This document shows, one piece after another, positions 3 through 31,249 of a stretch of DNA of 32,000 nucleotides. Where the stretch lies: contig JAJETY010000003.1 of assembly GCA_021268355.1 (NCBI GenBank), forward strand, positions 6,782 to 38,781, given 5' to 3'. The notes under the pieces are model-generated. The model worked only from the letters and a program-made list of their open reading frames with translations, did no database searches and was not told the origin of the DNA. The translations under genes were made by a program, and so were the position numbers. The DNA is from Nitrosopumilus sp. Lineage in GTDB: Archaea; Thermoproteota; Nitrososphaeria; Nitrososphaerales; Nitrosopumilaceae. Within the stretch, counting starts at the first letter, position 1. Every line of letters starts with the position of its first letter.

Positions 3-2000
3 CAAAGAGGTATTACAATTTATCAAGCAAATGTTACTTTACTTTTCCAACAAAAAGGCCAAGAATATGTCATTAACATGATTGATACACCTGGACACGT
101 TGACTTTAGTGGTAGAGTAATTCGTAGTCTTAGGGCAATTGATGGTGCAGTAGTTGTTTGTGATGCAGTTGAAGGCATCATGACTCAAACTGAAACTGTA
201 ACTAGAATGGCACTTGAAGAGAGAGTTAGACCCGTATTATTCATCAACAAAGTTGATAGACTCATCAAAGAACTCCGTTTAACCCCTGAAAAAATGCAAG
301 CACAACTTGCAGAAGTTGTTTCAAACTTTAACCAATTAGTAGATACCTATGCAGAACCTGAATACAAAGATAAGTGGAAAGTATCTATTCAAGATGCCAG
401 TGTGACATTTGGTTCTGCAAAAGATAGATGGGCCATTAACGTTGATTTGATGAAAGAAAGAGGTATTACATTCAAAGATGTTATTGACGCATATCAAAAT
501 GAAAAAGTAGATGATCTAGTTGAAAAGGCACCTTTAGCTGATGCTGTACTAGGAATGGTTGTAAAGCATCACCCAACTCCTGCTCAAGCTGTAAAATATA
601 GAATCCCACAAATTTGGAAAGGTGATTTAGACTCTGATATTGGTAAGGCATTACTTGCATGTAGTGATGATGGTCCTACAATTATGATGATTGTAAACAT
701 GGTGTTAGATCCTGCCGCTGGTCCTGTGGCTATTGGAAGATTATTTTCTGGTACAATAAAGGATGGTCAAACAATTAACATCATTGATGCAAAACGAGAA
801 GGTAGAATTCAATCTGTAAACTTTTTCATGGGAAACCAAAGAGAACAAGTAAGTGAACTAGGAGCTGGAAACATTCCTGCACTATTAGGATTAACTGAAG
901 CTAGAGCCGGCAATACCTTGGCATCAATTAAAGACATTCCTGTGTTTGAGGGTGTCAAATATGTCTCAGAACCTGTTGTTCAAGTGGCAATTGAACCAAA
1001 ACACCCTAAAGATTTGCCTAAACTAGTTGAAGTTCTCAAACAATTAACCATTGAGGATCCAAATCTCATCGTCAAGATTGATGAAGAAAGCGGTGAAACA
1101 ATTGTAGCTGGAATGGGAGTTTTACACTTGGATGTTGCCACTCACCGTATCCAAGATGCCAAAGTTGAGATTGTAACATCTGAACCTTTGATTAACTACA
1201 GGGAAACTGTCAAATCTGGATGTGACCCAATTATGTCAAAATCTCCAAACAGACACAATAAAATTTTCATGAAGGTGGAGCCACTTGAGCCAGCAATTGC
1301 AAACATGCTTAGAACTGGCGAAATCAGTGACATGAAAGACAAAAAGGTTGTTGCTGATTTACTTAAAGGTGCTGGATGGGATACAGATACAATCAAGAGA
1401 GTTATGAAATTTGATTCTCGTGGCAATGTTCTGATTAACGGAACAAAAGGTGTTCAATTTGTACAAGAATCAACTGATTCAATTAATTCTGGATTTGATG
1501 AAGTAATGAAAGAAGGTCCTCTCTGTAAAGAGCAGATGAGAGATTGTAAATTTACATTTACTCACTTTGTCCCTCACGAAGATACTGCACACAGAGGTCT
1601 TTCTCAATTAGGTCCTGCTTCACGTAGAGCATGTATGGGTGCATTACTCACTGCTGGAACTGCTGTTTTGGAACCTACTTTAGCTATTGAAGTTCGTGTT
1701 CCAACTGATCTTGTTGGCAACGTTGCAACAGTACTTTCAGGAAAACGAGGCAAAGTGCTTGACATGGCACAAAAAGGTGCTTCCAGCATTGTTACGGGTG
1801 AGCTTCCTGCTTCTGAAACATTTACTCTTTCTGAAGAGATGAGAGGTCAAACTGCAGGTCGTGCAACATGGAATACTTCATTCAAAGCATGGACAGAAGT
1901 TCCAAAATCGATGCTTTCTGCTGCTGTATCTGATATAAGAAAAAGAAAAGGTCTTGCACCTGATCCTCCAAGAGCAGACGAATTCATAGATAAAGAATAA
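3..2000 (+). CDS. fusA: translation elongation factor aEF-2 (5' end cut by window edge)
   Basis: The frame is open from nt 3 (QRGITIYQANV...INMIDTPGHVDF, a G-domain motif) and continues into listed ORF 78-2000. It has the diphthamide-site context HEDTAHRG and the C-terminal IRKRKGL motif typical of archaeal EF-2. Confidence 0.95.
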   Translation, partial: QRGITIYQANVTLLFQQKGQEYVINMIDTPGHVDFSGRVIRSLRAIDGAVVVCDAVEGIMTQTETVTRMALEERVRPVLFINKVDRLIKELRLTPEKMQAQLAEVVSNFNQLVDTYAEPEYKDKWKVSIQDASVTFGSAKDRWAINVDLMKERGITFKDVIDAYQNEKVDDLVEKAPLADAVLGMVVKHHPTPAQAVKYRIPQIWKGDLDSDIGKALLACSDDGPTIMMIVNMVLDPAAGPVAIGRLFSGTIKDGQTINIIDAKREGRIQSVNFFMGNQREQVSELGAGNIPALLGLTEARAGNTLASIKDIPVFEGVKYVSEPVVQVAIEPKHPKDLPKLVEVLKQLTIEDPNLIVKIDEESGETIVAGMGVLHLDVATHRIQDAKVEIVTSEPLINYRETVKSGCDPIMSKSPNRHNKIFMKVEPLEPAIANMLRTGEISDMKDKKVVADLLKGAGWDTDTIKRVMKFDSRGNVLINGTKGVQFVQESTDSINSGFDEVMKEGPLCKEQMRDCKFTFTHFVPHEDTAHRGLSQLGPASRRACMGALLTAGTAVLEPTLAIEVRVPTDLVGNVATVLSGKRGKVLDMAQKGASSIVTGELPASETFTLSEEMRGQTAGRATWNTSFKAWTEVPKSMLSAAVSDIRKRKGLAPDPPRADEFIDKE

Positions 2001-2656
2001 AAATAGAAGCCCCCCCTTTCGTTCCTAGAAAATCCGATTAATCTAGATTATAATGCCGATTATGATTCGTTAGAAATTGGTTTTATTGTGAAATTATAAC
2101 GAACGTTATGACCTTAGCTGGAAAAAAGAACCACTACAACATCAAATTTCTAAAAGGCTACGGATTTTCAATCAAGGTTAAAGATTCTAAGATTGTTTTG
2201 AAGAATTGTTACGATCCTTTTTCAAAACCTGAGATTGAAGAACACTTTGCTAGAACCATGCCCTACGAAAAGATTGTTGTCTCAGGCAAAGGCTACATCT
2301 CAACAGAAGCCTTGTCGATTTTATCTGAAAATAACAAGCACGTAATCCTACTTGATACATTTGGCAAGCCTCAAGTCTTCTTGAGTCCTATGATGGATTC
2401 ACTAACTGCCACTAGATACAGAATGGCTCAGTATGACACCTTTAGAAATGAGACAAAGCGCAAGTATCTAGCGCATCAGATAGTCAAGGCAAAGCAATTC
2501 AGTTTTCCAATAATTTCCAAAAACTTGGACAATGTCTAATAATTCCCAAAAATACCCCAAATTTTACCCAAAATGGGGTGATTTTAGGTGTAAAAATTAC
2601 CCTTTTACACACATATGCGTTGCCAGTGGAAAGATTTTTTTTTTGAAAAATATCAT
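2001..2656. mobile_element. putative degraded casposon remnant (boundaries not defined; no TIR/TSD found by eye)
   Basis: A Cas1-solo fragment lies directly on the 3' flank of aEF-2. The window has no cas2, CRISPR array or polB. Confidence 0.4.
2108..2539 (+). pseudogene. cas1: Cas1-like (casposase / CRISPR Cas1) N-terminal domain only; the C-terminal catalytic domain is absent
   Basis: The 143-aa ORF reads YEKIVVSGKGYISTEALSILSENNKHVILLDTFGKPQVFLSP...RYRMAQYDTF.NETKRKYLAHQIVKAK. This follows the Cas1 N-domain pattern (IVL.G...IS..AL..L....I.V.FLD..G...G.L.P...R..Q...R..lA..IV.AK). The ORF ends right after that helix, and no continuation is visible in other frames. Confidence 0.65.
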
Positions 2657-2803
2657 CTAGTTTTTGAAGGATTTTTTAAGTACCTCATTCAAAACTTTTG
2701 AATAACTATATGATTTCTTTTCTTTTTCAATCAACTTTGCTTGACGAAGTCGTAACTTTACATCTAGATCTTCATCAATCATTATAGTGACTCTTTTTGC
2801 CAT
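2657..2803 (-). CDS. small ribbon-helix-helix (CopG/Arc-like) DNA-binding protein, 48 aa; below the ORF-track cutoff
   Basis: Hand translation gives MAKRVTIMIDEDLDVKLRLRQAKLIEKEKKSYSYSKVLNEVLKKSFKN*. The KRVTI.IDEDL...L beta-strand plus two helices is a classic RHH signature. An AT-rich TATA-like sequence lies upstream. Confidence 0.5.
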   Translation of the reverse strand: MAKRVTIMIDEDLDVKLRLRQAKLIEKEKKSYSYSKVLNEVLKKSFKN

Positions 2804-3037
2804 ATTATATTACTGTGAAATTAAGAATTTAATACTGTCTACTGATTCCAAAAATGGAACTTAAATTATCTCAAGCAAAATATTTCTGTTCGTATCGTCT
2901 ATCATCTGTTTTTGGTTAAAAATTAATTTTCAGTAAATGCAGTTTAAAAAAATTTATCTAAAAATTAACAACATAATTTTTTTATTAAGATATGATTCAA
3001 TGACTCACTTTATGAATTCAAAAAGTTAATTTTTGAT

Positions 3038-5116
3038 TTATGGACAACCTTCACAATCTGTTGAAATTATTCCATTAAATTTTGCGTATTGGGTATTGGA
3101 ATTTGTCAAATCCGCAAGTGTAAGATCTGCATCGGTAAAATCTGCCTGAATTAATATTGAACTAGTCAAAATAATGCCTTCTAGATTGGCACCTCTCAAA
3201 TTCGCATTAGTTAAATCTGAACCTGCAAGATTGGCAAATTTGATTTCAGAATTTGTAAATATGGAGTTTTTTAGATTAGCCTCAGTCAATTCTATTTTTG
3301 ACAAAATTGCATCAGAAAAATCAGAATTTGTAATTTTGTTATTTTTCAAGGTTAATCCTGTCAAGTCTGTATGTTTCAAAATTACATTGTCAAAGTCAAT
3401 TTCATTCATGCGCACTCCGCCAAAGTTAGATTTTGATAAATCTGAATTTGTAACTTTGATCATATCTAAATCTGCATCAGTAAAATCTACATATTTTGCA
3501 ATTGTGTTGTCAATTACTGCATATCGTAAATCTGCACCCGTCATGTCCGCACCCGTCATATCTGAATCTAAAATTTTTGCAAAGCTTAAATCAACTTCTT
3601 GTAGATTAACATCAACAAAATTCACATTTGATATTGTGCTATCTTTTAGGTTGATACCTTCTAATGAAACATCAGAAAATATTACTTTGATTAGGGTTGA
3701 ATTACTTATAGTTGTGTCTTTGAATAGAGAGTCTGAAAAATTCACATCGATTAGTTTTGCACCCTGGAGGTTAGAATTTTCTAGATTTGAATTTGACAGA
3801 TTAATTCTTTGCAATGTAACATCCGATAAATCTGCAAATCTCAAATCTGATTCATTAATCTCCATATCCTCTAATAATTCGCCTGCTAGATTACATCCAA
3901 TCAAATTTGAAAATGGTTTGATTTCACAATTGTTGATGAAACCTATTACCTGTTCTTCAGTGATTTTGACATCTTTGAGAATTGAGTTGGTTATTATTGT
4001 ATTATCTGTACTTGCTCCTGAAATTATTGAAAATGACAAATCTGCATTACTTAGATCTGCGTTATTCAGATTTACATTAGTCCATATTGAATTAGTCATA
4101 TCTGCCCCTCTAAAATTTGCCCCCTCTGCATTTGATAGTTCAAAGTTAGAATTTGCTAAATTAGCATCAATAAACAATGAATTTGATATGTTTGAGCGTG
4201 CTAAATTGGCGCCTGATAAATTAATTTTATTTAATTTCATATCTGCCAAATTTGATCCCATTAAATTTGCGTTAGACAAATCAGCTTCCTCTAAAATTGC
4301 TTCTCTGAAATCTACCTCATCTAATTTTGCATTCTGGAAATTAACTAATCGAAAATTCGTATTCTCAAATTCTGCATTTGACAAATCTGCCCCAGTTAAA
4401 TCAGCATTATCAAACATAGACCAACTTAAATTACTGTCTTTTAGAATGGCATTTTTCAAATTTGTTTCATCTAATCTAGTTTGAGTGATTTTGCTTTTCA
4501 GTAAATTGGCCTCTTCAAGATTTGAATTAGTGAGAATGGAATTTTTTATTGTTATTTCTTTGAGATTAGCATTTGACAAATCTGCATTTGACAAATCAAC
4601 ATTATCAAAAACAACTCCTTCTAAATTTGAATTAGCGAGAATGGCATTTTTCAAAATTGTTCCTTTCATTACTGAGCCTGATAAATCCTGTTTGGATAGG
4701 TTTGTGTTGCTAAGATCTGTGTTAGTAAAATCTACATTATGAAATGTTGTCCATGTGAAATCTTTTCCAGACAAGTCCGACCCTGTAAAATCTACATCTA
4801 TAATTTTGGCACCAACAAAATTTACATTTGATAAATCCAACCCTACAAACGAAACCCCTGCAATTATTTTCTGTTCTTCAGTATTGGTTATCTCTGAGAA
4901 TTCTTTAGGTTGTTGGTCGATTATAATGATTTCATTTTTGATTAAATATTCCAATGCATTTTTTAATTCTATGTCCGTCATCATGCCTTCAGACCAAAAT
5001 TTAATGGTCGTCTTTATCCATTCTGGAAAAATTTCTGGATCTGTCTGGGCTAATCCTGGAGTAATTGTACCTGAAATTATTAGTAGGGATATAGCAATTA
5101 TTATGCCTTGAATCAT
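3038..5116 (-). CDS. secreted/membrane-anchored pentapeptide-repeat protein (692 aa)
   Basis: An N-terminal hydrophobic signal (MIQGIIIAISLLIISGTITPGLAQ) is followed by a PEWIKTTIKFWSEGMMTDIELKNALEYLIKNEII module. After that come roughly 100 A(D/N)LxX pentapeptide units (ADLSNANL, ANLEGVVF and similar). The C-terminus is CEGCP. Confidence 0.9.
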   Translation of the reverse strand: MIQGIIIAISLLIISGTITPGLAQTDPEIFPEWIKTTIKFWSEGMMTDIELKNALEYLIKNEIIIIDQQPKEFSEITNTEEQKIIAGVSFVGLDLSNVNFVGAKIIDVDFTGSDLSGKDFTWTTFHNVDFTNTDLSNTNLSKQDLSGSVMKGTILKNAILANSNLEGVVFDNVDLSNADLSNANLKEITIKNSILTNSNLEEANLLKSKITQTRLDETNLKNAILKDSNLSWSMFDNADLTGADLSNAEFENTNFRLVNFQNAKLDEVDFREAILEEADLSNANLMGSNLADMKLNKINLSGANLARSNISNSLFIDANLANSNFELSNAEGANFRGADMTNSIWTNVNLNNADLSNADLSFSIISGASTDNTIITNSILKDVKITEEQVIGFINNCEIKPFSNLIGCNLAGELLEDMEINESDLRFADLSDVTLQRINLSNSNLENSNLQGAKLIDVNFSDSLFKDTTISNSTLIKVIFSDVSLEGINLKDSTISNVNFVDVNLQEVDLSFAKILDSDMTGADMTGADLRYAVIDNTIAKYVDFTDADLDMIKVTNSDLSKSNFGGVRMNEIDFDNVILKHTDLTGLTLKNNKITNSDFSDAILSKIELTEANLKNSIFTNSEIKFANLAGSDLTNANLRGANLEGIILTSSILIQADFTDADLTLADLTNSNTQYAKFNGIISTDCEGCP

Positions 5117-5398
5117 ATTGATCGAGGAATATTCTGGAATTTAAGTTAAAATGGGTTATCACGTGAAATTTTAATCAGGTTCAAATAACTAAATTTCCGA
5201 ACAAATTCTTCGAACATGACTGACATCATTTTTACACGCTTCATTGATTTTTCTCTGAATCTCTTTTATCTTCTCATTTGACATGCCTTGTGTGCCCATA
5301 ATCCCATCTGTTTTTTGGCATGATCTAAATCATGCGTAAAATTTTTTTTGATAATTTGACTGAATTTTGCTCATGCTTATCGAAGAAATTTTTTAATA

Positions 5399-5423
5399 GT
5401 CAACCTGTTTATTGTAGGTTGAC
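5399..5423. promoter_or_regulatory. perfect 8-bp/8-bp inverted repeat (gtcaacct-n9-aggttgac) between a TATA-like box and the wHTH gene start; candidate auto-operator
   Basis: Read directly from the sequence. A TATA-like aaattttttaatag lies at 5387-5398, and the gene starts at 5427 (GTG) or 5433 (ATG). Confidence 0.4.
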
Positions 5424-5426
5424 CTA

Positions 5427-6011
5427 GTGAAAATGAGTCAAATTGAGCCTAATCTAATCATATGTGAGCGTGAAAGAATATTTTTAGAACAAATTACAAA
5501 AAACCCTCTATCTCATCACAATTCTCTATTGAAAATTATTGTACCAAAATTTATGGCAAAAACTACTTTCGAGAAAACACGTGATTCTCTGATTGAAAAA
5601 GAGATCATCTATGTTGAATTAAAAAAGAATATGAAATTTTATCGCCTCACAGAAAATTACCTACAAAAAGCCACTCAACACATTGAAAAAACCACTAATG
5701 GTTCTTATCATGATCTTAAAATCCAAATTAAAAGATTAGATACAGATTTTCCTCATAAAGACATAGATGAAAAGATAAACACTGCTAATTCAATTTTACG
5801 GGGACTGTTACAAACTGATAACGGTTTTACGATTTTAGATTCTATTAAAAATCCAAAAAAAACCCTATATCGAGATGAACATTTAACTATTCAGCAATTA
5901 ATTTATCGGGTTTATGATGTCATTCAAAATGATAGGGATTCTGAGTTGTTAATTCCAATAATTATCAGTTTTTTGGGGGTCACATTACCAAAAAATACTT
6001 TATATCAATAG
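5427..6011 (+). CDS. putative winged-helix (wHTH) DNA-binding protein with a helical C-terminal domain
   Basis: The N-terminal ~70 aa fit a wHTH pattern (ERIFLEQITKNPLSHHNSLLKII...TFEKTRDSLIEKEIIYVELKKNMKFYRLTE). The architecture matches ORF 11513-12079. The start may be the ATG at 5433. Confidence 0.6.
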   Translation: MKMSQIEPNLIICERERIFLEQITKNPLSHHNSLLKIIVPKFMAKTTFEKTRDSLIEKEIIYVELKKNMKFYRLTENYLQKATQHIEKTTNGSYHDLKIQIKRLDTDFPHKDIDEKINTANSILRGLLQTDNGFTILDSIKNPKKTLYRDEHLTIQQLIYRVYDVIQNDRDSELLIPIIISFLGVTLPKNTLYQ

Positions 6012-6053
6012 TGATACTCTAGTTATTTATTCAGGTTAATTTGAGGATATTTT

Positions 6054-6284
6054 ATGGGCTTACTCTACACAAAATTTTATATGGATTTTGATGAAGATGA
6101 TTGGAATCAAGTTTCAAACGACCCCATAATATTTGAGACAAAAAAAGAAAATATTACTTTAGAGATTGAAGATGCTTCTCATAACTTTTACAAACTTCAT
6201 TTCAAAAAAGGTGGAAAAATTCAGATGTTTCGAGTAACCGGAAGATTTAGACTTACTTGGAATGATGAAGATATTTTAGATTAA
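6054..6284 (+). CDS. hypothetical protein (76 aa)
   Basis: The ORF has an SD-like tgagga 6-7 nt upstream of the ATG and is co-directional with the wHTH gene. I recognised no motif. Confidence 0.5.
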   Translation: MGLLYTKFYMDFDEDDWNQVSNDPIIFETKKENITLEIEDASHNFYKLHFKKGGKIQMFRVTGRFRLTWNDEDILD

Positions 6285-6317
6285 AAAATTATAATAGGCT
6301 CTCAAAGAACTATTTTC

Positions 6318-6548
6318 ATGTCTTTAGATGAACAGGTATCTAAAATATTAAAAAACTTTGAAAATGCTACATCCAATGAAATAATTGATGTTTTAAAGCA
6401 AATTCAGCCTCAATTTAAGAGTAATTTAACATCTGAATATCTCAATGGAAAAATTCAGAAAATTTTAGAACTTGATGATGAGTCTGAAAAAAAGAAACAA
6501 TGTAAAGCACTAATTCCATATCTTGATTGGTATTTACAAGGACTTTAA
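6318..6548 (+). CDS. hypothetical helical protein (76 aa)
   Basis: ORF with typical composition, third gene of the co-directional cluster. Confidence 0.5.
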   Translation: MSLDEQVSKILKNFENATSNEIIDVLKQIQPQFKSNLTSEYLNGKIQKILELDDESEKKKQCKALIPYLDWYLQGL

Positions 6549-6550
6549 AT

Positions 6551-6976
6551 TTAATCAGAATATTCTTTTATTTTCTTTAATGCGTTTTTTATTGTTCCAA
6601 CATCATTTTTTGCAATTGATAAATCGCCTACTAATTCTAGAAAATATTCATGGCCTGTATTCTGAGCTTTTTCTATATCTGACTCGTAACACATCAGAGC
6701 TTTTTCAAAGAAAGGAATTTCCTCGCTAAGATTTTTTACTGATTGAATGTTGTCAATACTGTTTTTGATTTTTTGAACCACCTCGTCAATTTTTGGAACG
6801 GTTTTCACTGCTTGTTGATTTAAAACTGAAGCAAACATTGCGGCTGAATCTTTGAGTTCTGGACTTTTTGCAATTGTTCTTAATCTCTTACGATAATGCT
6901 CCAATGATTTTAATATGATTTCATACCCTCCCTCATCTTTAAGAAAGATAGCACCCATCCACACTTTTTCAGTCAT
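6551..6976 (-). CDS. hypothetical all-helical protein (141 aa)
   Basis: Clean ORF. The overlapping + strand ORF 6523-6729 has low-complexity composition and is judged spurious. Confidence 0.65.
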   Translation of the reverse strand: MTEKVWMGAIFLKDEGGYEIILKSLEHYRKRLRTIAKSPELKDSAAMFASVLNQQAVKTVPKIDEVVQKIKNSIDNIQSVKNLSEEIPFFEKALMCYESDIEKAQNTGHEYFLELVGDLSIAKNDVGTIKNALKKIKEYSD

Positions 6977-7048
6977 TTACAAAAAATCTAATTGAAGAGC
7001 TATAATTTAGTTGTCCCAAAAATTATTTTTATAAATTATTTTAGAAAA

Positions 7049-7279
7049 TTAATCTCTTGATTCAAAATTTTCTTGAATTGGCTGCTGGTTTCTACTGATT
7101 AGGTATAACAAAATCCCTGCAACTCCAACTCCTATACCTGAGAGACCTACAAAAGTACCGATATTTTTGATTAATCTCAAAATAGGTTCTGTTTGACCAA
7201 TTTCTATAGAATAAAACATTATCAAACCTGCCACGAACATTCCTCCCCCAATAATGAGCATTGATAAACCAGCACGCAT
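7049..7279 (-). CDS. small membrane protein, two predicted TM helices (76 aa)
   Basis: Two hydrophobic Gly-rich segments are present (LSMLIIGGGMFVAGLIMFY and IGTFVGLSGIGVGVAGILLYLI). Confidence 0.6.
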   Translation of the reverse strand: MRAGLSMLIIGGGMFVAGLIMFYSIEIGQTEPILRLIKNIGTFVGLSGIGVGVAGILLYLISRNQQPIQENFESRD

Positions 7280-7390
7280 ACTATGGATTCAATTTTCTAA
7301 TTAATAAATCACCTAAAATTTATGCATAAGTGAATTTTTTTAAGAAGTTATTTTTACTAGATTATAAGAAAATTAACAACAGGTTAAGAT

Positions 7391-8866
7391 ATGTCCCAAT
7401 TGACTCTTATAGAAACAATTCAAAATATACAATCATTAATTGATTCGGGTGATGGTGATCCTGGAAGATTATATCATATTTTAGAATGTCTAAAAAACAA
7501 AAAACCACTATATCACTCTGATCAAGATTATCTTGAGAAAAAATTAAAATCTTCATTCAGTTTTGAAGAAATAACTGAATCTCAAACTGATAGCGATGTA
7601 TTACCAAAAATCCAAGAATTAATTGATTCTGGAATGGGTGATGCTGGAAGATTGCAACATATCTATGATATGATTTTAAAAAATAAACCTCTCTACCATT
7701 CAGATGTCACTTATCTTGAATCTAAAATTAATAAAACAATAATCCCGAACTCTGAAGATACAAAATCTAAAATCGAACTATATGAAATAGAATCATCTTC
7801 ACAGACATTTGAAAGCGAACCCGAAATAAAATCCACTCCTAGAGGAACAATGCCCAAAGATTGGGACAACCCTGATTCAGAAGAAATAGAGAAAATTACA
7901 AAAGACATTGAAAAGGAGGAGGAAAAAATTCAAAAACAAAGATTAATTTCTAATGAAATTAGTGCACATCGAACAAAATTAACCCAATTAGTATCTCATA
8001 GAAAAGAATATGAACAAAAAGTAGCTCAAGAGAAAGAATCGTTAGAGTCACAAATAAAAGAAGAAAGGCAAAAAATTGAAACTCAAACAAAACTTTCTGA
8101 AGAAATCATAATCCAAAAAGAAGAACTCGCTAAAGTTAAAAAAGAACGAACCGAAATTATTAAAAAAATCAATTTAGAAAAAACAAAAATTTCTAAAGAA
8201 CTAGGACATCAAAAAAGACAACTAGTTCAGGCACAGTTAGAACAGGAAAAAATAGAAAAACAAATTGAAACTGAGCAAGATTTACTTGCAAAAATGATTG
8301 AAGAACAAAAAACACGCCTATTTGAACAGGCCTCTATTGCAAATGAAATCAAATCAAAACAGAATGATTTGGAGAAAACAAAGAAGGATTATGAGATAAT
8401 TGTCTCTCAAGTTAAAGAAGAGAAAGAAAGATTTGCAGAATCTGAAAAATTAAAGAATTTGATAAAATCTCAGGAATCTGATTTAATTAAATCGAAAGAA
8501 GAGCGCCTCAACTTGATAAACGTGATTTCCAAAGAGAAAGAGGTGATAGACAAAAAAACAAAGGAGGAAAAAGAGCGACTTAAATCTCAAGAAACCCTCA
8601 TGAAACAACTAAAAAAAGAGCAAAAAATCTACGAATCACTCAAAAAGAAAAGGGAAAAAACCGAGGAACAAATTAGAGTTAAAAATCAAAAACTTAAAGA
8701 AAAACAACAGAAACTAAAACAAGAAATATCTGAAAAAGATAAGAAACTAAAATCATTAGGTTCAAAAATTACAATTGGTAAAAAATCCGTAAAAAATACT
8801 ACAAAAAATACTACAAAAAATACTACAAAAAATACTACAAAAAATACTAAGAAGAAATCATCTTAA
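7391..8866 (+). CDS. coiled-coil protein (491 aa) with a duplicated N-terminal module and a KNTT repeat tail
   Basis: There are two copies of IQ.LIDSG.GD.GRL.HI...L.NK.PLYHSD..YLE.K. These are followed by about 300 aa of E/K/Q-rich heptad-like sequence and then (KNTT)4. Confidence 0.8.
   Translation: MSQLTLIETIQNIQSLIDSGDGDPGRLYHILECLKNKKPLYHSDQDYLEKKLKSSFSFEEITESQTDSDVLPKIQELIDSGMGDAGRLQHIYDMILKNKPLYHSDVTYLESKINKTIIPNSEDTKSKIELYEIESSSQTFESEPEIKSTPRGTMPKDWDNPDSEEIEKITKDIEKEEEKIQKQRLISNEISAHRTKLTQLVSHRKEYEQKVAQEKESLESQIKEERQKIETQTKLSEEIIIQKEELAKVKKERTEIIKKINLEKTKISKELGHQKRQLVQAQLEQEKIEKQIETEQDLLAKMIEEQKTRLFEQASIANEIKSKQNDLEKTKKDYEIIVSQVKEEKERFAESEKLKNLIKSQESDLIKSKEERLNLINVISKEKEVIDKKTKEEKERLKSQETLMKQLKKEQKIYESLKKKREKTEEQIRVKNQKLKEKQQKLKQEISEKDKKLKSLGSKITIGKKSVKNTTKNTTKNTTKNTTKNTKKKSS
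8781..8850 (+). repeat. in-frame 12-bp tandem repeat aaaaatactaca: 4 perfect copies flanked by 2 degenerate copies
   Basis: Perfect copies were counted directly at 8792-8803, 8804-8815, 8816-8827 and 8828-8839. Partial copies lie on both sides. Confidence 0.9.
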
Positions 8867-9472
8867 CTTTAAGGTGATCTCTTCACCATTTCCAATTGAT
8901 GAAGTTATAGTTTTAAGATTTTCATTTGCTTGAATATGTCTAGATAATTTTATCATGTCTTGCTTATATTTTTCAGGATACAGCATATTATCTGTGATGA
9001 TTAATCCACCTATTGATACCATGGGTAAAATCATGTCAAAATATTCAATTACATTTTCCTTATCTGCATCAATTAGTACAAAATCAAAGAATTCTTTGTA
9101 TTTTTCTTCCAAACTCAATTCTCTAAGAATCTGTATGGCCAACCCCTCTCTAATTGATATTTTATCTAAAACCTCCGCATCCTGAAAATTCTTTATTGCC
9201 CTTTCAATCTTTTTAGGATTTTGTTCAATTGTTATTATACTCCCTCCATTTTCATTAATTGCTTCGGCACACCATATAGTAGAATATCCTACAGACATTC
9301 CAACTTCAAGTAAATTTTTTGCATTTTTTAAGCGTATTAGCATATTGAGTAATTCACCTGTTTCTTTTGTAATTGCTAACATTCTCTCATCTCCGGGAAC
9401 ATCAGCCTGTCTTGATTTTTCTAATATCGATTGTTTTTCTAATCGTTCCAATACCTCAAAAATTTTACTCAT
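8858..9472 (-). CDS. class I SAM-dependent O-methyltransferase (family 3, caffeoyl-CoA OMT / YrrM-like)
   Basis: LLEVGMSVGYSTIW is SAM-binding motif I. IITIEQNP, FDFVLIDADKENVIEYFD and GGLIITDNML match the Methyltransf_3 layout. Confidence 0.85.
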   Translation of the reverse strand: MSKIFEVLERLEKQSILEKSRQADVPGDERMLAITKETGELLNMLIRLKNAKNLLEVGMSVGYSTIWCAEAINENGGSIITIEQNPKKIERAIKNFQDAEVLDKISIREGLAIQILRELSLEEKYKEFFDFVLIDADKENVIEYFDMILPMVSIGGLIITDNMLYPEKYKQDMIKLSRHIQANENLKTITSSIGNGEEITLKLR

Positions 9473-9561
9473 TTTTTCTGTATTTTTAAATAATTTTGTC
9501 CTTGTATTAGTATTCTAAGATCATGCTTTTTTATTATTAGATTATATTTACCCATCATTTT

Positions 9562-9948
9562 TTGTTAATCATGGCAGGAAAAACAATCGATCTGCTTGAA
9601 GTCGTTCAAAAAATCATTAATCTAGATTCTAAAATGAGATTTGCCGCAATAATTGATTCTAAAGGTAACATTAGAGAGGCCATAATGAAAACTGGTAAAA
9701 CTAATCTTAAATCTCAAAAGGAAGAGGAACATTTCTGCAAACAAGTTGCACAAAGACGTGCTATGAGAAAAGAATTTGACAGATCTCTTGGTAAAGTTCG
9801 CTATGTGCATGTTGAAAGAGAAAAAGTATCTCAAATGGTTGTATATGCAAAAAGAAATATCATCTATTTTACAATGGAACCTGAAATGCCAATTAACACA
9901 AAAATTAGATTAATTACAAAAATCAAGAAACTTACTGCTGGCCTTTAG
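9562..9948 (+). CDS. conserved hypothetical protein, possibly Roadblock/LC7-like fold
   Basis: The FAAIIDSKGNI...LGKVRYVHVEREKV...IIYFTME pattern resembles Roadblock/LC7, but this is weak and by eye only. The likely true start is the ATG at 9571 (MAGKTIDLL). Confidence 0.6.
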   Translation: MLIMAGKTIDLLEVVQKIINLDSKMRFAAIIDSKGNIREAIMKTGKTNLKSQKEEEHFCKQVAQRRAMRKEFDRSLGKVRYVHVEREKVSQMVVYAKRNIIYFTMEPEMPINTKIRLITKIKKLTAGL

Positions 9949-9981
9949 AAGAATTTCTAAAATAACAAATTAGTTGATATC

Positions 9982-10326
9982 ATGACTTTTCCCAAATATC
10001 TTGGTGATTCAAAGATGTTTGAATATGATAAACATTACAGAGATTGCCAACAGTTTGATAAACCGTTCATTAAAGCAAAAATCAATCCTCAACATGGAAA
10101 TTATTTTGTTCAAATAGATTTGATGCCATGTGATTTCAAGTTCTCAAAAAATGATGAAAAAAAATTAGAAAAAATGATACAAAATGAAAATGACTATCTA
10201 AAGTTAAATTCTGAGCCTGAATTGAATGGTTTTAGCATTACTTCTGAACTTGCATGGTTTGATGGCGTATCTGCTAATAATTTGGATTCTTTTTGTAACT
10301 TCCTTTATGATTTAACTCAGTCTTAA
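9982..10326 (+). CDS. hypothetical protein (114 aa)
   Basis: ORF only; no motif recognised. Confidence 0.5.
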   Translation: MTFPKYLGDSKMFEYDKHYRDCQQFDKPFIKAKINPQHGNYFVQIDLMPCDFKFSKNDEKKLEKMIQNENDYLKLNSEPELNGFSITSELAWFDGVSANNLDSFCNFLYDLTQS

Positions 10327-10529
10327 AATCTAATTAAATTTTTTAAAATTTTATCGATTACTTTCAACTCTTGTCTTCTTTCTTTAATTGTGGTCTCATT
10401 CCATTTTTTTGCAAATTCTGATTTTTGGTCAAGTTTCTCTAATTCTTGAATGTACTTTACAAGATGAATTTTGTAGTCATGTAGCAAATCCAAATGCTTG
10501 TTATGGTTATTCTCTGTTGGAGTTGTCAT
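10323..10529 (-). CDS. small helical hypothetical protein (68 aa)
   Basis: ORF lying 2 nt downstream of ORF 10532-10744, so the two probably form a two-gene operon. Confidence 0.5.
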   Translation of the reverse strand: MTTPTENNHNKHLDLLHDYKIHLVKYIQELEKLDQKSEFAKKWNETTIKERRQELKVIDKILKNLIRF

Positions 10530-10531
10530 CT

Positions 10532-10744
10532 TTAATCATCTGTAATATCTGGGAACATTTCTTTAATTCTTAACTTGTCTTTTTCCATGGCTTCAATTCT
10601 CTTTTCAAGATGATTTTTAATTACTGGATTTGTTTCCAGTTTTTCTTCATCACGTATATCTGATATTGTTTTTGTCAATGAATCATAATATTTGATATGG
10701 TTCTTTCTTGATTCCTCTGATCTGTCTTCATCTTTAACGTCCAC
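10532..10744 (-). CDS. small helical hypothetical protein (70 aa); its C-terminal IKEMFPD motif is shared with ORF 16174-16377
   Basis: ORF with the tail EKDKLRIKEMFPDITDD, compared with EELEKIKKKFPENFFES in ORF 16174-16377. Confidence 0.5.
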   Translation of the reverse strand: MDVKDEDRSEESRKNHIKYYDSLTKTISDIRDEEKLETNPVIKNHLEKRIEAMEKDKLRIKEMFPDITDD

Positions 10745-11243
10745 AATATAATTAGAATTTTCTAAAATAAGTATTTGATGTTTTTATATTATTTGTTATT
10801 TGGATGTGCAACATTTTCTCAAAAAAATCAAATATATTTTTAGATTTTTTTAAGTTTCTATTTTTATATCGTCAATTATCATAATCCATAATATTGGATA
10901 CAAGATATGATGATTATTGATTTTCTTGTGATCATTTGATAGTATAGAGAGAATTAGGCAGTTTTAGGATATGTGGGGAGAGAGCCTAGAATTGAAAATA
11001 TCCTGACACTGGAAAATAAATCAATTAAAAGATTAATTCAATTTCAACTTAGAAAAATCCACTTTAACTGACTTCAAAATTTAAAAAATTTTTAACCTCA
11101 TCTGATTGGTTTCTGTATATTTTCATAAAATTACATGTTAAATTTGAAAATACACGTCAAAAATTAAAAACCTACTATGGATACAACCATAAATTCTATA
11201 GAAAAATTCTACACTAATATTGAAATAAAATTAAGTTTCTTTA

Positions 11244-11516
11244 ATGAAAATTCTTGTAGATGAAAATCTTGACGGAATGGATGAGCGTCTAAAAGAACAC
11301 GGATACGATGCATTAAGTGTTCGTAAATTGAACATGGCTGGAGAGAAACTCGGTTCAGATTTTTCAGTGATTCAATATGCTCAAAAGAATGATTTGATTA
11401 TTGTAACTAAAGATAAAGAATATCGTAAAGCAAGCGAAGAAAATGACTTTCCATTGATTCTTCTTGATGATGAAGAAATACTAAAAGTTATCATAGAAAA
11501 ACTAAAAAATTTTTAA
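11244..11516 (+). CDS. DUF5615 / Mut7-C-type PIN-like domain protein (putative toxin-like nuclease fold)
   Basis: MKILVDENL...LKEHGYDALSVRKL...SDFSVIQYAQKNDLIIVTKDKEY follows the DUF5615 consensus (MK.L.DENL...L...GHDV..V...G..SD.EI...A......I.TKD.DF). Confidence 0.7.
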   Translation: MKILVDENLDGMDERLKEHGYDALSVRKLNMAGEKLGSDFSVIQYAQKNDLIIVTKDKEYRKASEENDFPLILLDDEEILKVIIEKLKNF

Positions 11517-12079
11517 TTAATATTTTTAGAATTTATGTGAGATATTCGTAAATTTGATAAAATTTCATTGAGAAACACATCTTCCGGCTGATGTGAAATA
11601 GTGGACATAATTGCTTGCCAACAATCATCAATTTTTCTATTGATCTGTGGAAACATTTTGTCTTTTCTAAATGTTGGATAAAATGAAAGTAATTTCATTA
11701 TTCCATCTGTGGATTGAACAATTTGTATAAAATGAATTATTGACATTAGTCTTTGATTGAATGAATGATTTTCCATTTTACTGATATCTTCAAAGCTTTC
11801 AATCTCTTCAAAAATAATTTTCACTTCCGAATGCAAATTTTTTAATTGATTATTTACTGATTCGTAGAGATTTACTAATTCATACTCTATATGTGATCTA
11901 CTATGAACTCTTTTTTCAATATCTCCAGATTGCACAAGTGCACTAATTTCTCTGTAGACTGTTTTTTCATTTCCTACCTTTTCCATGACTCTTTTTGCTA
12001 GTTCACCGGCTCTAATCTTTCCATTTTCGTTAAGTATCCTAATAATCTCAATTCTGATAATCTCTGAATTTTTATCCAA
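11513..12079 (-). CDS. putative wHTH DNA-binding protein with a helical C-terminal domain (188 aa)
   Basis: The N-terminus IRIEIIRILNENGKIRAGELAKRV...EKTVYREISALVQSGDIEKRV is a wHTH pattern. The C-terminal segment IQIVQSTDGIMKLLS resembles LLQTDNGFTILDS in ORF 5427-6011. Confidence 0.6.
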   Translation of the reverse strand: MDKNSEIIRIEIIRILNENGKIRAGELAKRVMEKVGNEKTVYREISALVQSGDIEKRVHSRSHIEYELVNLYESVNNQLKNLHSEVKIIFEEIESFEDISKMENHSFNQRLMSIIHFIQIVQSTDGIMKLLSFYPTFRKDKMFPQINRKIDDCWQAIMSTISHQPEDVFLNEILSNLRISHINSKNIN

Positions 12080-12088
12080 TTTTTTCTC

Positions 12089-12322
12089 CTATTTTTGATA
12101 TTTTTCTATAACTTTACTCTGCCCCATCACACTAATCTCTTTTGCCAATTCTTGTAGGATTTCTATCCCTTTTTTGATTGGTTCTTTTGATATCTGTTTA
12201 TTTTCTAATTTCTGTTTCAAGACTAATTTTTCATTATTTACAAAACTGATCAAAGAAACATCTTTCCCCATGTTTAGATTTATAAAAAAATCTACATATT
12301 CTGCAGCACTATCAATGCCCAT
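12089..12322 (-). CDS. hypothetical protein (77 aa), upstream gene of the wHTH operon
   Basis: ORF ending 9 nt upstream of the wHTH gene on the same strand. Confidence 0.5.
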   Translation of the reverse strand: MGIDSAAEYVDFFINLNMGKDVSLISFVNNEKLVLKQKLENKQISKEPIKKGIEILQELAKEISVMGQSKVIEKYQK

Positions 12323-12399
12323 ACTGAATATCCCTTTAAGGGGTATTTGTTTGGAACACTCAAAACTAGATTAAAATAATTTCAAAACTATGCACATGT

Positions 12400-12663
12400 A
12401 TGGATAAATGCGATAGACGTGTTCGTGCATATAAAAACGGAAAAACACTTGATGAGTGTAAAGAACTTGCAGAATCACTTAATCCCAATTTTAAGGATCA
12501 AATTGAACAAAATGGTAGGATTCTCTGGTCTCAAATTCTTGAACAAGTTGATCATGATGAATTAATTTACAAATTTACTCTCAAATTCTTGAGACGTGAT
12601 GGATATGATATAGGCAACTGGAAACGACCTCATGTACAAAAATTCAATCATTGGTTTACATAA
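12400..12663 (+). CDS. hypothetical protein (87 aa)
   Basis: ORF only. Confidence 0.5.
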   Translation: MDKCDRRVRAYKNGKTLDECKELAESLNPNFKDQIEQNGRILWSQILEQVDHDELIYKFTLKFLRRDGYDIGNWKRPHVQKFNHWFT

Positions 12664-12672
12664 AAATTTGAA

Positions 12673-13485
12673 TTAAATTTTGCAACTACCATCTGGATTA
12701 CGTAATTTTTTTGCCATAATGTATGGTGTTACCACAAGTATTGGAATTGAGACTGCAATTAGCAATGTCTGTAATTGTGCTAACGCAAGAGATATTGCTA
12801 TTCCACTAGCAGTTCCAATAAATAAAGAGAAAAATGTCCCTGCACATGTTGGGCATGCAATAAAAGCCCCCACAATCGCTCCCATTCCACTCATTCCACT
12901 TCCTTTTTTGGAAAATGTATATGCACTTACTGCAAGTGATGTATTTAGTGCAACTAGATATGATACGATAATTTGCAATACTAAATTGATTGGAATTATT
13001 TGTAATCCCACGTGCTCACTAAGGTATATTATTATTTTTGGCATATATCCTAATTCTCCACAACATGGTGCAACAAATCCTGAAGGAATCTTTGCACCAT
13101 AGTGTATTGAAAAAGTTACTTCGGGCTGATACACAAGTGTTCCTGATACTAATGCAAAGAAGATTCCATAGCCTACAAATATTGCAACAAAAATTTTCCT
13201 AGATTTTTTATTCCAGGTTACTAAAGCAATGATTGTGGAAAGGTCTTTTTTGTTTTCTTCTATCTTGCCTTTGTGATATCTATACATGCCAAGAGCAATC
13301 GCTCCAAAAGATGCAACCAACGCAATGTAAAATATGTAAGCTATTCTTTGAATTGATTCTATAGCACTGGGTGTGAGTAGTTCTGAATCCTGATACCTAG
13401 CATAAATTATGAATAGTAATGCAATTGCTACAAAACCTAAAACAATTAGTTTTTTCCCTTTACTAATTGAATTTGATTTCTCCAT
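12673..13485 (-). CDS. polytopic membrane protein with conserved Cys motifs (APCCGELGY; ACPTCAG)
   Basis: About 6 hydrophobic segments plus CC and CPTC motifs. It sits immediately downstream of trkH on the same strand. Confidence 0.75.
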   Translation of the reverse strand: MEKSNSISKGKKLIVLGFVAIALLFIIYARYQDSELLTPSAIESIQRIAYIFYIALVASFGAIALGMYRYHKGKIEENKKDLSTIIALVTWNKKSRKIFVAIFVGYGIFFALVSGTLVYQPEVTFSIHYGAKIPSGFVAPCCGELGYMPKIIIYLSEHVGLQIIPINLVLQIIVSYLVALNTSLAVSAYTFSKKGSGMSGMGAIVGAFIACPTCAGTFFSLFIGTASGIAISLALAQLQTLLIAVSIPILVVTPYIMAKKLRNPDGSCKI

Positions 13486-21770: not shown

Positions 21771-22039
21771 GATAAAATATTGAGAATTATTCTGATATAA
21801 ATTCCATCTCTATGTGACTACAAATTTCTGTCTTCTTTTATACTAAATCAAGGTAATTGCGATATGGTATCTAGAATTACAGTAGTGTTAAGTCCATCAA
21901 ATATTGAAAAACTTTGAAACATTCAAGCAAAGATGATTAAGACAACAACAAATTCTGTTAGCTTTTCACATGTCCTAAATCTGGTAGTATCTGAGGGCTT
22001 GAAAAAATTCAAGACAAGAGAAAAAATAAAAATTATTCA

Positions 22040-30871: not shown

Positions 30872-31249
30872 TTAACGTCGACGTTTAGTAGCTGCCTTTC
30901 TCTTTGGAGCTGCCTTTCTTTTTGGAGCGGCTTTTCTCTTTGGAGCGGCTTTTTTTGCTGCAGTTTTTCTCTTTGGAGCTGCCTTTCTTTTTGGAGCGGC
31001 TTTTCTCTTTGGAGCTGCTTTTTTTGCTGCAGTTTTTCTCTTTGGAGCGGCACTACGTTTTGCGGCGGTTCTCCTTTTTGGAGCTGCTTTTTTTGCTGCA
31101 TTTCTTTTACGTGCTGCCTTTCTCTTACGAGATGCTGCTGCTGCTGCTGCCTCTGCTGCTTTTTTTGCTGCATTTCTTTTTCTTGTTTTTGCTGCTTTTT
31201 TAGCTGCTTCGGCTCTTTTGGCTCTTGACATTGCCATGATTTTTTTCAA
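30872..31249 (-). CDS. Lys/Ala/Pro-repeat highly basic protein (histone H1 C-terminal-tail-like / AlgP-like), putative nucleoid-associated
   Basis: The sequence is ...AAKKAAPKRKAAPKRKAAPKRKTAAKKAAPKRK..., with 23-aa repeats. The probable true start is the ATG at 31237 (MAMSRAK), with a TATA-like ccatataac about 28 nt upstream. The other two frames are repeat artefacts. Confidence 0.7.
   Translation of the reverse strand: MKKIMAMSRAKRAEAAKKAAKTRKRNAAKKAAEAAAAAASRKRKAARKRNAAKKAAPKRRTAAKRSAAPKRKTAAKKAAPKRKAAPKRKAAPKRKTAAKKAAPKRKAAPKRKAAPKRKAATKRRR
30901..31050. repeat. 69-bp tandem repeat, 2.2 copies (copies 1 and 2 differ at 1 of 69 positions)
   Basis: Units at 30901-30969 and 30970-31038 were compared directly. 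A partial third copy follows. Confidence 0.9.

Follow-up and report, generated by a model that had tools for sequence, protein, structure and literature searches.

Does the short open reading frame (ORF) that follows the aEF-2 (EF-2) gene at this locus come from a casposon, and how much of such an element is left? The window, that is, the whole 32-kb stretch of DNA that was analysed, opens within the aEF-2 gene, whose 3' part lies on the plus strand from 1 to 2000 and ends with the stop codon TAA at 1998–2000. A first-pass annotation had read the ORF as a truncated Cas1 gene and the locus as the decayed left end of a casposon, with the other modules deleted or replaced.

For comparison, one genome per species was scanned with the aEF-2 C-terminus, which gave 80 Nitrosopumilaceae loci, each followed downstream for up to 10 kb. 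The empty and fully occupied sites were those of other species than the window, and the closest aEF-2 showed 88% nucleotide identity. The last 199 residues of the window aEF-2 were 90–97% identical in amino acids to the aEF-2 of the 80 loci, and EF-G/EF-2 Pfam domains were present in the homologue at locus L007. TIR occupancy was counted by the motif after the aEF-2 stop in 78 loci. The limits of the insert were taken from a blastn search of the window against the loci and from direct reading of the boundary.

The ORF behind aEF-2 is the N-terminal part of a casposase

The ORF lies at 2108–2539 on the plus strand, as first annotated, encodes 143 aa and starts 107 nt after the aEF-2 stop. The suggested check against the Pfam Cas_Cas1 profile gave a significant match (E 7.4e-10, 38.9 bits; gathering cut-off, 22.3 bits), in which residues 19–129 corresponded to profile positions 7–108 of 283. 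The NCBIfam cas1 models matched the same stretch with scores under their full-length cut-offs, as expected of a fragment. In BLASTP, the stub was 71% identical over 123 aa (E 5e-62) to the biochemically characterised family-1 casposase of Ca. N. koreensis AR1 (sequence from Krupovic et al. 2014, Additional file 2; PMC4046053). Furthermore, it was 67% identical to the 334-aa casposase at locus L012.

Structural comparison gave the same answer. The best solved structure by sequence was the casposase 6opm_A of Methanosarcina mazei (E 8.9e-6, query 12–132 against chain 20–140). The AF2 (AlphaFold) model of the stub reached a pLDDT of 85–91 over residues 9–92, and its top Foldseek match was again 6opm (E 7.5e-9). 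The top 50 matches were all Cas1 or casposase, and among the Foldseek matches the identity to CRISPR Cas1 structures was 10–25%.

Homology to the full-length L012 casposase ended at residue 132 of 334 (nt 2503). Cas1 homology in the stub thus covers residues 1 to about 132 (2108–2503), and the last 11–14 residues or so form an unrelated tail. The assignment to the Cas1 clade of family-1 casposases likewise applies to residues 1 to about 132 only. The catalytic Glu, His and Asp/Glu motifs lie beyond residue 140 in full-length proteins and are missing from the stub, as had been noted. Further Cas1 similarity was found by tblastn in no frame of the window, which thus has no intact C-terminal catalytic domain. 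An independent metagenome contig, L088, carries 2030–2607 with one mismatch, and therefore the region is not an assembly artefact. It is beyond reasonable doubt that the ORF encodes an N-terminal fragment of Cas1.

The aEF-2 3' end carries a casposon target site and a left TIR

The 3' end of aEF-2 is targeted by the family-1 casposons of thaumarchaea (PMC4046053, section 7, with EF-2 listed in Table S1; PMC6563490, section 8), which bears out the annotation. EF-2 is the commonest target of thaumarchaeal casposons, and a tandem pair at an EF-2 site has been described (PMC6563490). In N. koreensis, the target-site duplication (TSD) comprises 13 bp, ATTGATAAAGAGT, with a short leader before it, an ATAA ruler and the key positions A1, A11 and T13, and the casposon TIR terminates in TTCTA-3' (PMC8464041).

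The window has the left copy of the 13-bp TSD, ATAGATAAAGAAT, at 1986–1998 on the plus strand, and its last base is the first letter, T, of the aEF-2 stop codon. This 13-mer is the positional homologue of the experimentally defined N. koreensis TSD (PMC8464041) and retains A1, A11, T13 and the ATAA ruler at positions 5–8. The same 13 nt are perfectly duplicated at both element ends in L012, L007 and L083.

The left TIR core, AAAAATAGAAGCCCCCCCTTTCGTTCC, follows directly at 1999–2025 (plus strand). It matches the published TIR of NitAR1-C1, the left end of the L012 casposon and the reverse-complemented right end of the latter. The motif occurs once in the window against a chance expectation of 0. 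The junction of ATAGATAAAGAAT with AAAAATAGAAGCCCCCCCTTTCGTTCC has the architecture of the L012 casposon base for base, and the order TSD, AAAAA-TAGAA and C-run at 1986–2025 is common to the L012 casposon and the TIR/DR of NitAR1-C1. The run of seven C at 2010–2016, which had been noticed where a TIR would be expected, lies inside the left TIR and is therefore part of it. The first two A of the TIR finish the stop codon. Insertion thus leaves the gene undisrupted, since the TIR begins after the stop-codon T and restores TAA.

Directly 3' of the aEF-2 stop, the TIR motif was present in 16 of the 78 loci, and it was missing from the empty sites L009 and L010. At all 16 loci with the motif, the stop is TAA followed by AAA; a TAG stop was seen at many of the loci that lack the motif, L009 and L010 among them.

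The subterminal region and cas1 5' leader (2026–2107, plus strand) contains the motif ATGATTCGTTAGAAAT at 2062–2077 and A/T-rich boxes of promoter-like appearance, which may have a promoter role. The short inverted repeats reported for the junction are located at 2066–2078 and 2091–2103. In its general form, ATGATT(T/C)GTT(G/A)GAAAT, the subterminal motif belongs to Cas1-proximal ends, about 65–80 nt in from the tip of the casposon. It was found in the window, L007, L001, L034 and the right end of L012; the PolB-proximal end of L012 lacks it. It may serve as a cas1 promoter element or as a casposase-binding site.

The insert is about 1 kb long and has one end

The empty sites define how far the insert can extend. 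At L010, 44 nt without any TIR separate the aEF-2 stop from the end of the pentapeptide-repeat gene, and homology to the window resumes at 3019 (L010 position 616). At L009 and many other loci, about 40 nt after the aEF-2 stop comes the sequence equivalent to window 5386 onward. From 5386, the window is syntenic with many Nitrosopumilus genomes and aligns to about 15–17 kb. Hence, the casposon-derived insert covers at most 1999–3018 (about 1.0 kb). The reading as a casposon left end held for the end itself, its TIR and its target; the stretch 3019–12700, which had been thought to hold the replaced interior, is host DNA. The low G+C content of 2001–12700 had also been considered as one large casposon island. 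Since the sequence from 5386 onward is syntenic in many genomes and 3019–5385 is present at the L010 empty site, the low G+C is no sign of such an island.

The remainder of the insert, 2504–3018 (515 nt), ends where synteny with L010 resumes. It resembled none of the L012 casposon proteins, and its nucleotide sequence was matched nowhere in the casposon-bearing loci. A 48-aa ORF with a ribbon-helix-helix (RHH)-like pattern lies within it on the minus strand (2657–2803 including the stop) and gave no Pfam match. Six other Nitrosopumilaceae loci carry homologues of this ORF (MAKRVTIMIDEDLDVKLRLRQAKL...) with 49–68% identity, at scattered places that are not near casposon ends, and a paralogue of 35% identity occurs in the window at 21861–22004. 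The pentapeptide-repeat protein gene (3038–5116, minus strand; Pfam Pentapeptide E 3e-104) belongs to the host flank outside the casposon and is a strain-variable host gene. At the right boundary, about 16 nt of the L010 spacer are missing, which suggests that the deletion of the right end also took a little of the flank. Immediately left of 3019, a GAATTC with resemblance to the aEF-2 leader was weighed as a trace of the right end. It was treated as a coincidence because it is only 6 nt long and the next bases are flank homologous to L010.

The right end itself was searched in several ways. A 24-mer of the TIR, allowed up to 3 mismatches, had no inverted counterpart in the window, which therefore lacks a pair of TIRs. 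Local alignments of the expected right TIR plus TSD against 2040–13000 scored no better than the shuffled-sequence controls. No G-run of at least 5 occurs between 2017 and 5974. A second TSD copy was not found either; the most similar 13-mer in 2040–5450 has 2 mismatches, falls within the cas1 ORF and adjoins no TIR. The first annotation had found neither a distal TIR nor a TSD, and the 24-mer, local-alignment and 13-mer scans gave no match above chance.

Other casposon parts were searched by tblastn with all 15 ORFs of the L012 casposon against the whole window (E up to 10). The protein-primed PolB gave a best E of 0.72, in agreement with the earlier statement that the 32 kb hold no family-B polymerase. 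None of the 14 ORFs other than Cas1, PolB included, matched the window (all E ≥ 0.15). The suspicion that further casposon pseudogene fragments lie in 2001–12700 was not borne out, as Cas1 residues 1–132 alone were matched. Neither a CRISPR-like array, as already reported, nor a tRNA was detected in the window.

One further model treated the stub as the duplicated 5' end of cas1 within a long TIR. It was prompted by two convergent Cas1 genes at L003. The window has no second copy, and the L003 copies are about 49% identical and form no DNA inverted repeat, so that this model was ruled out. An Ala/Lys/Arg-rich ORF at 30872–31249 (minus strand), built on 18/36/69-nt tandem repeats (AAKKAAPKRK...) and overlapped by antisense ORFs, is unrelated to the casposon relic.

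Casposons and scars at related loci

Locus L012 (Nitrosarchaeum sp. ECS25A1, JAILWJ010000001.1) contains a complete casposon of about 8.8 kb at the aEF-2 site. On its left, aEF-2 ends in ATCGACAGAGAGT, followed by AAAAATAGAATCCCCCCATTTCGTGC; on its right, GCACGAAATGGGGGGATTCTATTTTT is followed by ATCGACAGAGAGT, which gives a perfect 26-nt TIR and a perfect 13-bp TSD. The element encodes a protein-primed PolB of 594 aa (Pfam DNA_pol_B_2 E 1.2e-28) and the 334-aa Cas1 (Pfam E 1.6e-42). At L012 19409–20330, a second left end (AAAAAGGCAACGCCCCCC) comes right after the complete casposon and its right TSD. This second element has a 144-aa C-terminal fragment of PolB on the minus strand, and the site is thus a tandem of one intact and one decayed element.

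Within 10 kb of aEF-2, the L012 element was the only complete one seen. Besides the 16 loci with a TIR scar, there were roughly ten more degenerate cases. Cas1 N-terminal stubs after aEF-2 measured 77 (L019), 84 (L034), 143 (the window) and 234 aa (L007), and Cas1 was missing from the downstream flank in 77 of the 80 related loci. C-terminal PolB fragments were observed at L033 (11428–12207), L061 (13193–13765), L042 (11255–11596) and L018 (11119–11273). Each follows a TIR motif within about 0.5–3.2 kb past aEF-2, and its strand and side are those that an insertion opposite to that of the window would give. Cas1 stubs in one orientation and PolB stubs in the other show that the end abutting aEF-2 is the survivor.

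A database search yielded 199 relatives of the stub, the best 120 of which are all 95–250 aa long. Many short relatives are located on contigs of 0.5–3 kb and were probably cut by the contig ends. The stubs on long contigs are genuinely truncated, with varied endpoints (116–250 aa) and each with its own junk tail. They occur at aEF-2 (L007), at the leuB 3' end (L001, L003–L006) and at other places (L002, L089, L090), and at L091 one stub lies within an element that still has PolB.

Two shorter elements with both ends were observed at the aEF-2 site. The element of about 3.0 kb at L007 (3188–6224) has both TIRs (right, 6186–6211) and the perfect 13-bp TSD ATTGACAGAGATT on both sides. It holds the 234-aa truncated Cas1 together with redoxin and DsbD-like genes, has no PolB, and is a deletion derivative that may still be a candidate for mobilisation in trans. 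The element of about 3.0 kb at L083 (10599–13602) has casposon TIRs of about 55 nt (2 mismatches in the first 26) and the perfect TSD ATCGACAAAGTAT. Its four ORFs (172, 220, 228 and 153 aa) include neither Cas1 nor PolB. It looks like a non-autonomous casposon, a class that we did not find described in the casposon papers cited here.

The 3' end of a leuB-like gene (Iso_dh) is a second integration hot spot (L001, 9870–10003; L003, L004 and L005, 9270–10010). The gene end ...CTCT is followed by AAAAATAGAACCCCCCC, the TIR again completes a TAA stop, and Cas1 stubs come next. The leuB gene is not among the casposon targets given in the 2014 and 2019 papers (EF-2, purD, intergenic). L003 also carries a near-full-length divergent Cas1 at 11351–12418 (minus strand; 356 codons with one in-frame stop), which is 45% identical to the L012 casposase and convergent to a stub of 135 aa at a distance of about 1 kb. 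At L004, residues 6–45 are all that is left of the divergent Cas1, and the two contigs are otherwise identical and differ by this deletion.

Four MAG contigs (L008, L020, L046 and L077) stop at the aEF-2 stop or within about 20 nt of it, and L046 breaks off in the TIR. Casposon ends thus seem to interrupt assembly, so that casposon occupancy would be under-counted in MAGs.

Comparison with known casposons

The closest described elements are NitAR1-C1 of Ca. N. koreensis AR1 and NitSJ-C1 of Nitrosopumilus sp. SJ (PMC4046053, PMC8464041). They share with the window the aEF-2 3' target, a TSD that ends on the stop-codon T and a near-identical TIR start (AAAAATAGAA-C-run-TTCG-TTCCTA), and the 71% casposase identity extends over the remaining part of the window stub. 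Their cas1 also apparently lies on the aEF-2 side, judging from adjacent GenBank gi numbers in the supplement. These elements measure 8.2 kb, whereas the window relic measures about 1 kb and its Cas1 is cut at residue 132 or so of about 334. Unlike them, the window has no protein-primed PolB, conserved small genes, right TIR or second TSD, and no small ORF between the TIR and cas1. The L012 casposon has the same target and TIR core as the window and differs in being intact, in its length, in its opposite orientation with PolB beside aEF-2 and in the decayed tandem element after it.

A closer parallel in kind is given by the family-2 solo-TIRs of M. mazei (IR1 locus; PMC4779613). They are also one-ended relics at a preferred site and are commoner there than complete elements. 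The window relic differs from them in belonging to family 1, in its Nitrosopumilaceae host, in its protein-coding target and in the 5' casposase piece kept besides the TIR. It shares their defining state, one TIR at a known target and no complete element (PMC4779613). Therefore, the feature derives from a family-1 casposon, lacks most functional attributes of one and is best filed with casposon remnants.

Proposed history of the relic

The feature is very probably the decayed left end of a family-1 casposon at the canonical aEF-2 site, reduced by one or more later deletions to a neutral relic. A family-1 casposon would have inserted itself at the final 13 bp of the aEF-2 coding sequence, its canonical target, in the orientation that put cas1 beside aEF-2, as in NitAR1-C1. 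One or more later deletions would then have removed everything from about cas1 codon 132 onward. These deletions would have taken away the catalytic domain and protein-primed PolB, the conserved small genes, the right TIR together with the second copy of the target site, and some 16 nt of downstream spacer. Still in place are the left TSD copy, the left TIR, the cas1 leader and the 143-aa open stub, followed by about 0.5 kb of DNA that shows no link to known casposon parts.

With no active site, one end only and no polymerase, the remnant cannot transpose, and most likely it is evolving neutrally. The aEF-2-proximal end probably persists because leftward deletions would hit an essential gene and because the TIR supplies the last two bases of the stop codon. 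The pattern of survivors fits deletions barred from an essential gene better than selection for the Cas1 domain.

Synonymous sites are saturated among all available copies of the stub (pS 0.85–1.0), and the sole close relative differs by one base. From this saturation and the empty sites in the nearest relatives (at most 88% aEF-2 nucleotide identity), we infer that the aEF-2 stubs of different species are independent insertions and not one ancient event.

Alternative explanations

It is improbable, though the best of the alternatives, that the stub has been kept for a function. The N-terminal domain, once expressed, would attach to full-length casposase subunits or to casposon ends. It would thereby inhibit or regulate incoming family-1 casposons in a trans-dominant manner, as truncated transposase repressors do. 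The ORF is in fact intact with its own leader and start codon, and the 129 homologous codons run uninterrupted within a region of about 31% GC. Its N-terminal domain is predicted to fold confidently. The stub keeps D110, R113 and K117, which have been tied to oligomerisation and activity of the N. koreensis casposase (Wang et al. 2021, PMC8464041), and D110 and R113 are conserved interface residues. At residue 46, a nearly invariant W is replaced by H, and the lone population variant, the single difference between the window and L088, is non-synonymous (Y104C) at a conserved Tyr.

The shortness of the best 120 database homologues would also suit a selected domain, but many of these matches are the probable products of contig ends described above. 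Truncation points range from 77 to 250 aa, some of them within the N-terminal domain. Remnants of the opposite orientation keep the PolB C-terminus, which indicates that position, not function, decides survival. Furthermore, tandem insertions at occupied sites exist (L012; NitNF5, PMC6563490), so that occupation does not block reuse of the site. Marginally less probable still is the proposal that the expressed stub poisons or regulates incoming family-1 casposases as casposon immunity for the host or the resident element, in which case stubs would be selected rather than junk.

The relic is very unlikely to be part of a still mobile, non-autonomous casposon derivative moved by a casposase in trans, as the elements of about 3 kb at L007 and L083 may be. 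Those PolB-less elements lend the idea its plausibility, as they have both TIRs and perfect 13-bp TSDs at the same site, L007 with a 234-aa Cas1 stub. The window, however, shows no inverted TIR (up to 3 mismatches of 24), no second TSD and, from 2017 to 5974, no run of five or more G, and its right-end alignments in 2040–13000 remain at the shuffled level.

That the stub is a pseudogene from a CRISPR-Cas adaptation module, or else an ancestral host gene without relation to casposons, can be dismissed almost entirely. The stub has the N-terminal beta-rich fold and Pfam family of CRISPR Cas1 (A. fulgidus 4N06, E. coli 3NKD), but its identity to CRISPR Cas1 structures is far below the 71% to the N. 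koreensis casposase. The window has no array-like repeats or leader, and no Cas2 was recognised among the neighbours of the gene, which are aEF-2, the RHH-like ORF and the pentapeptide-repeat gene. Directly upstream, the gene is bounded by a casposon TIR and the canonical target. The loci without a downstream Cas1 (77 of 80) include the clean empty sites L009 and L010, two of the nearest available relatives with downstream sequence, so that the gene is not ancestral core content.

Significance for casposons of marine ammonia oxidisers

The decayed casposon end in the window is a clear case of a known relic type, not a new system. It shows that family-1 casposons leave recognisable one-ended scars at aEF-2, and in this they resemble the family-2 casposons of Methanosarcina. 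For a survey of casposon dynamics, the PolB-less elements, the leuB target and the scar frequency are more useful than the window relic. The comparison set outlines a casposon life cycle in marine ammonia oxidisers, with scars at 16 of 78 loci against one intact element, insertions in both orientations, two-ended elements without PolB and a hot spot at leuB. Such scars could mark past casposon activity, and they could help to ask whether non-autonomous casposons are mobilised in trans.
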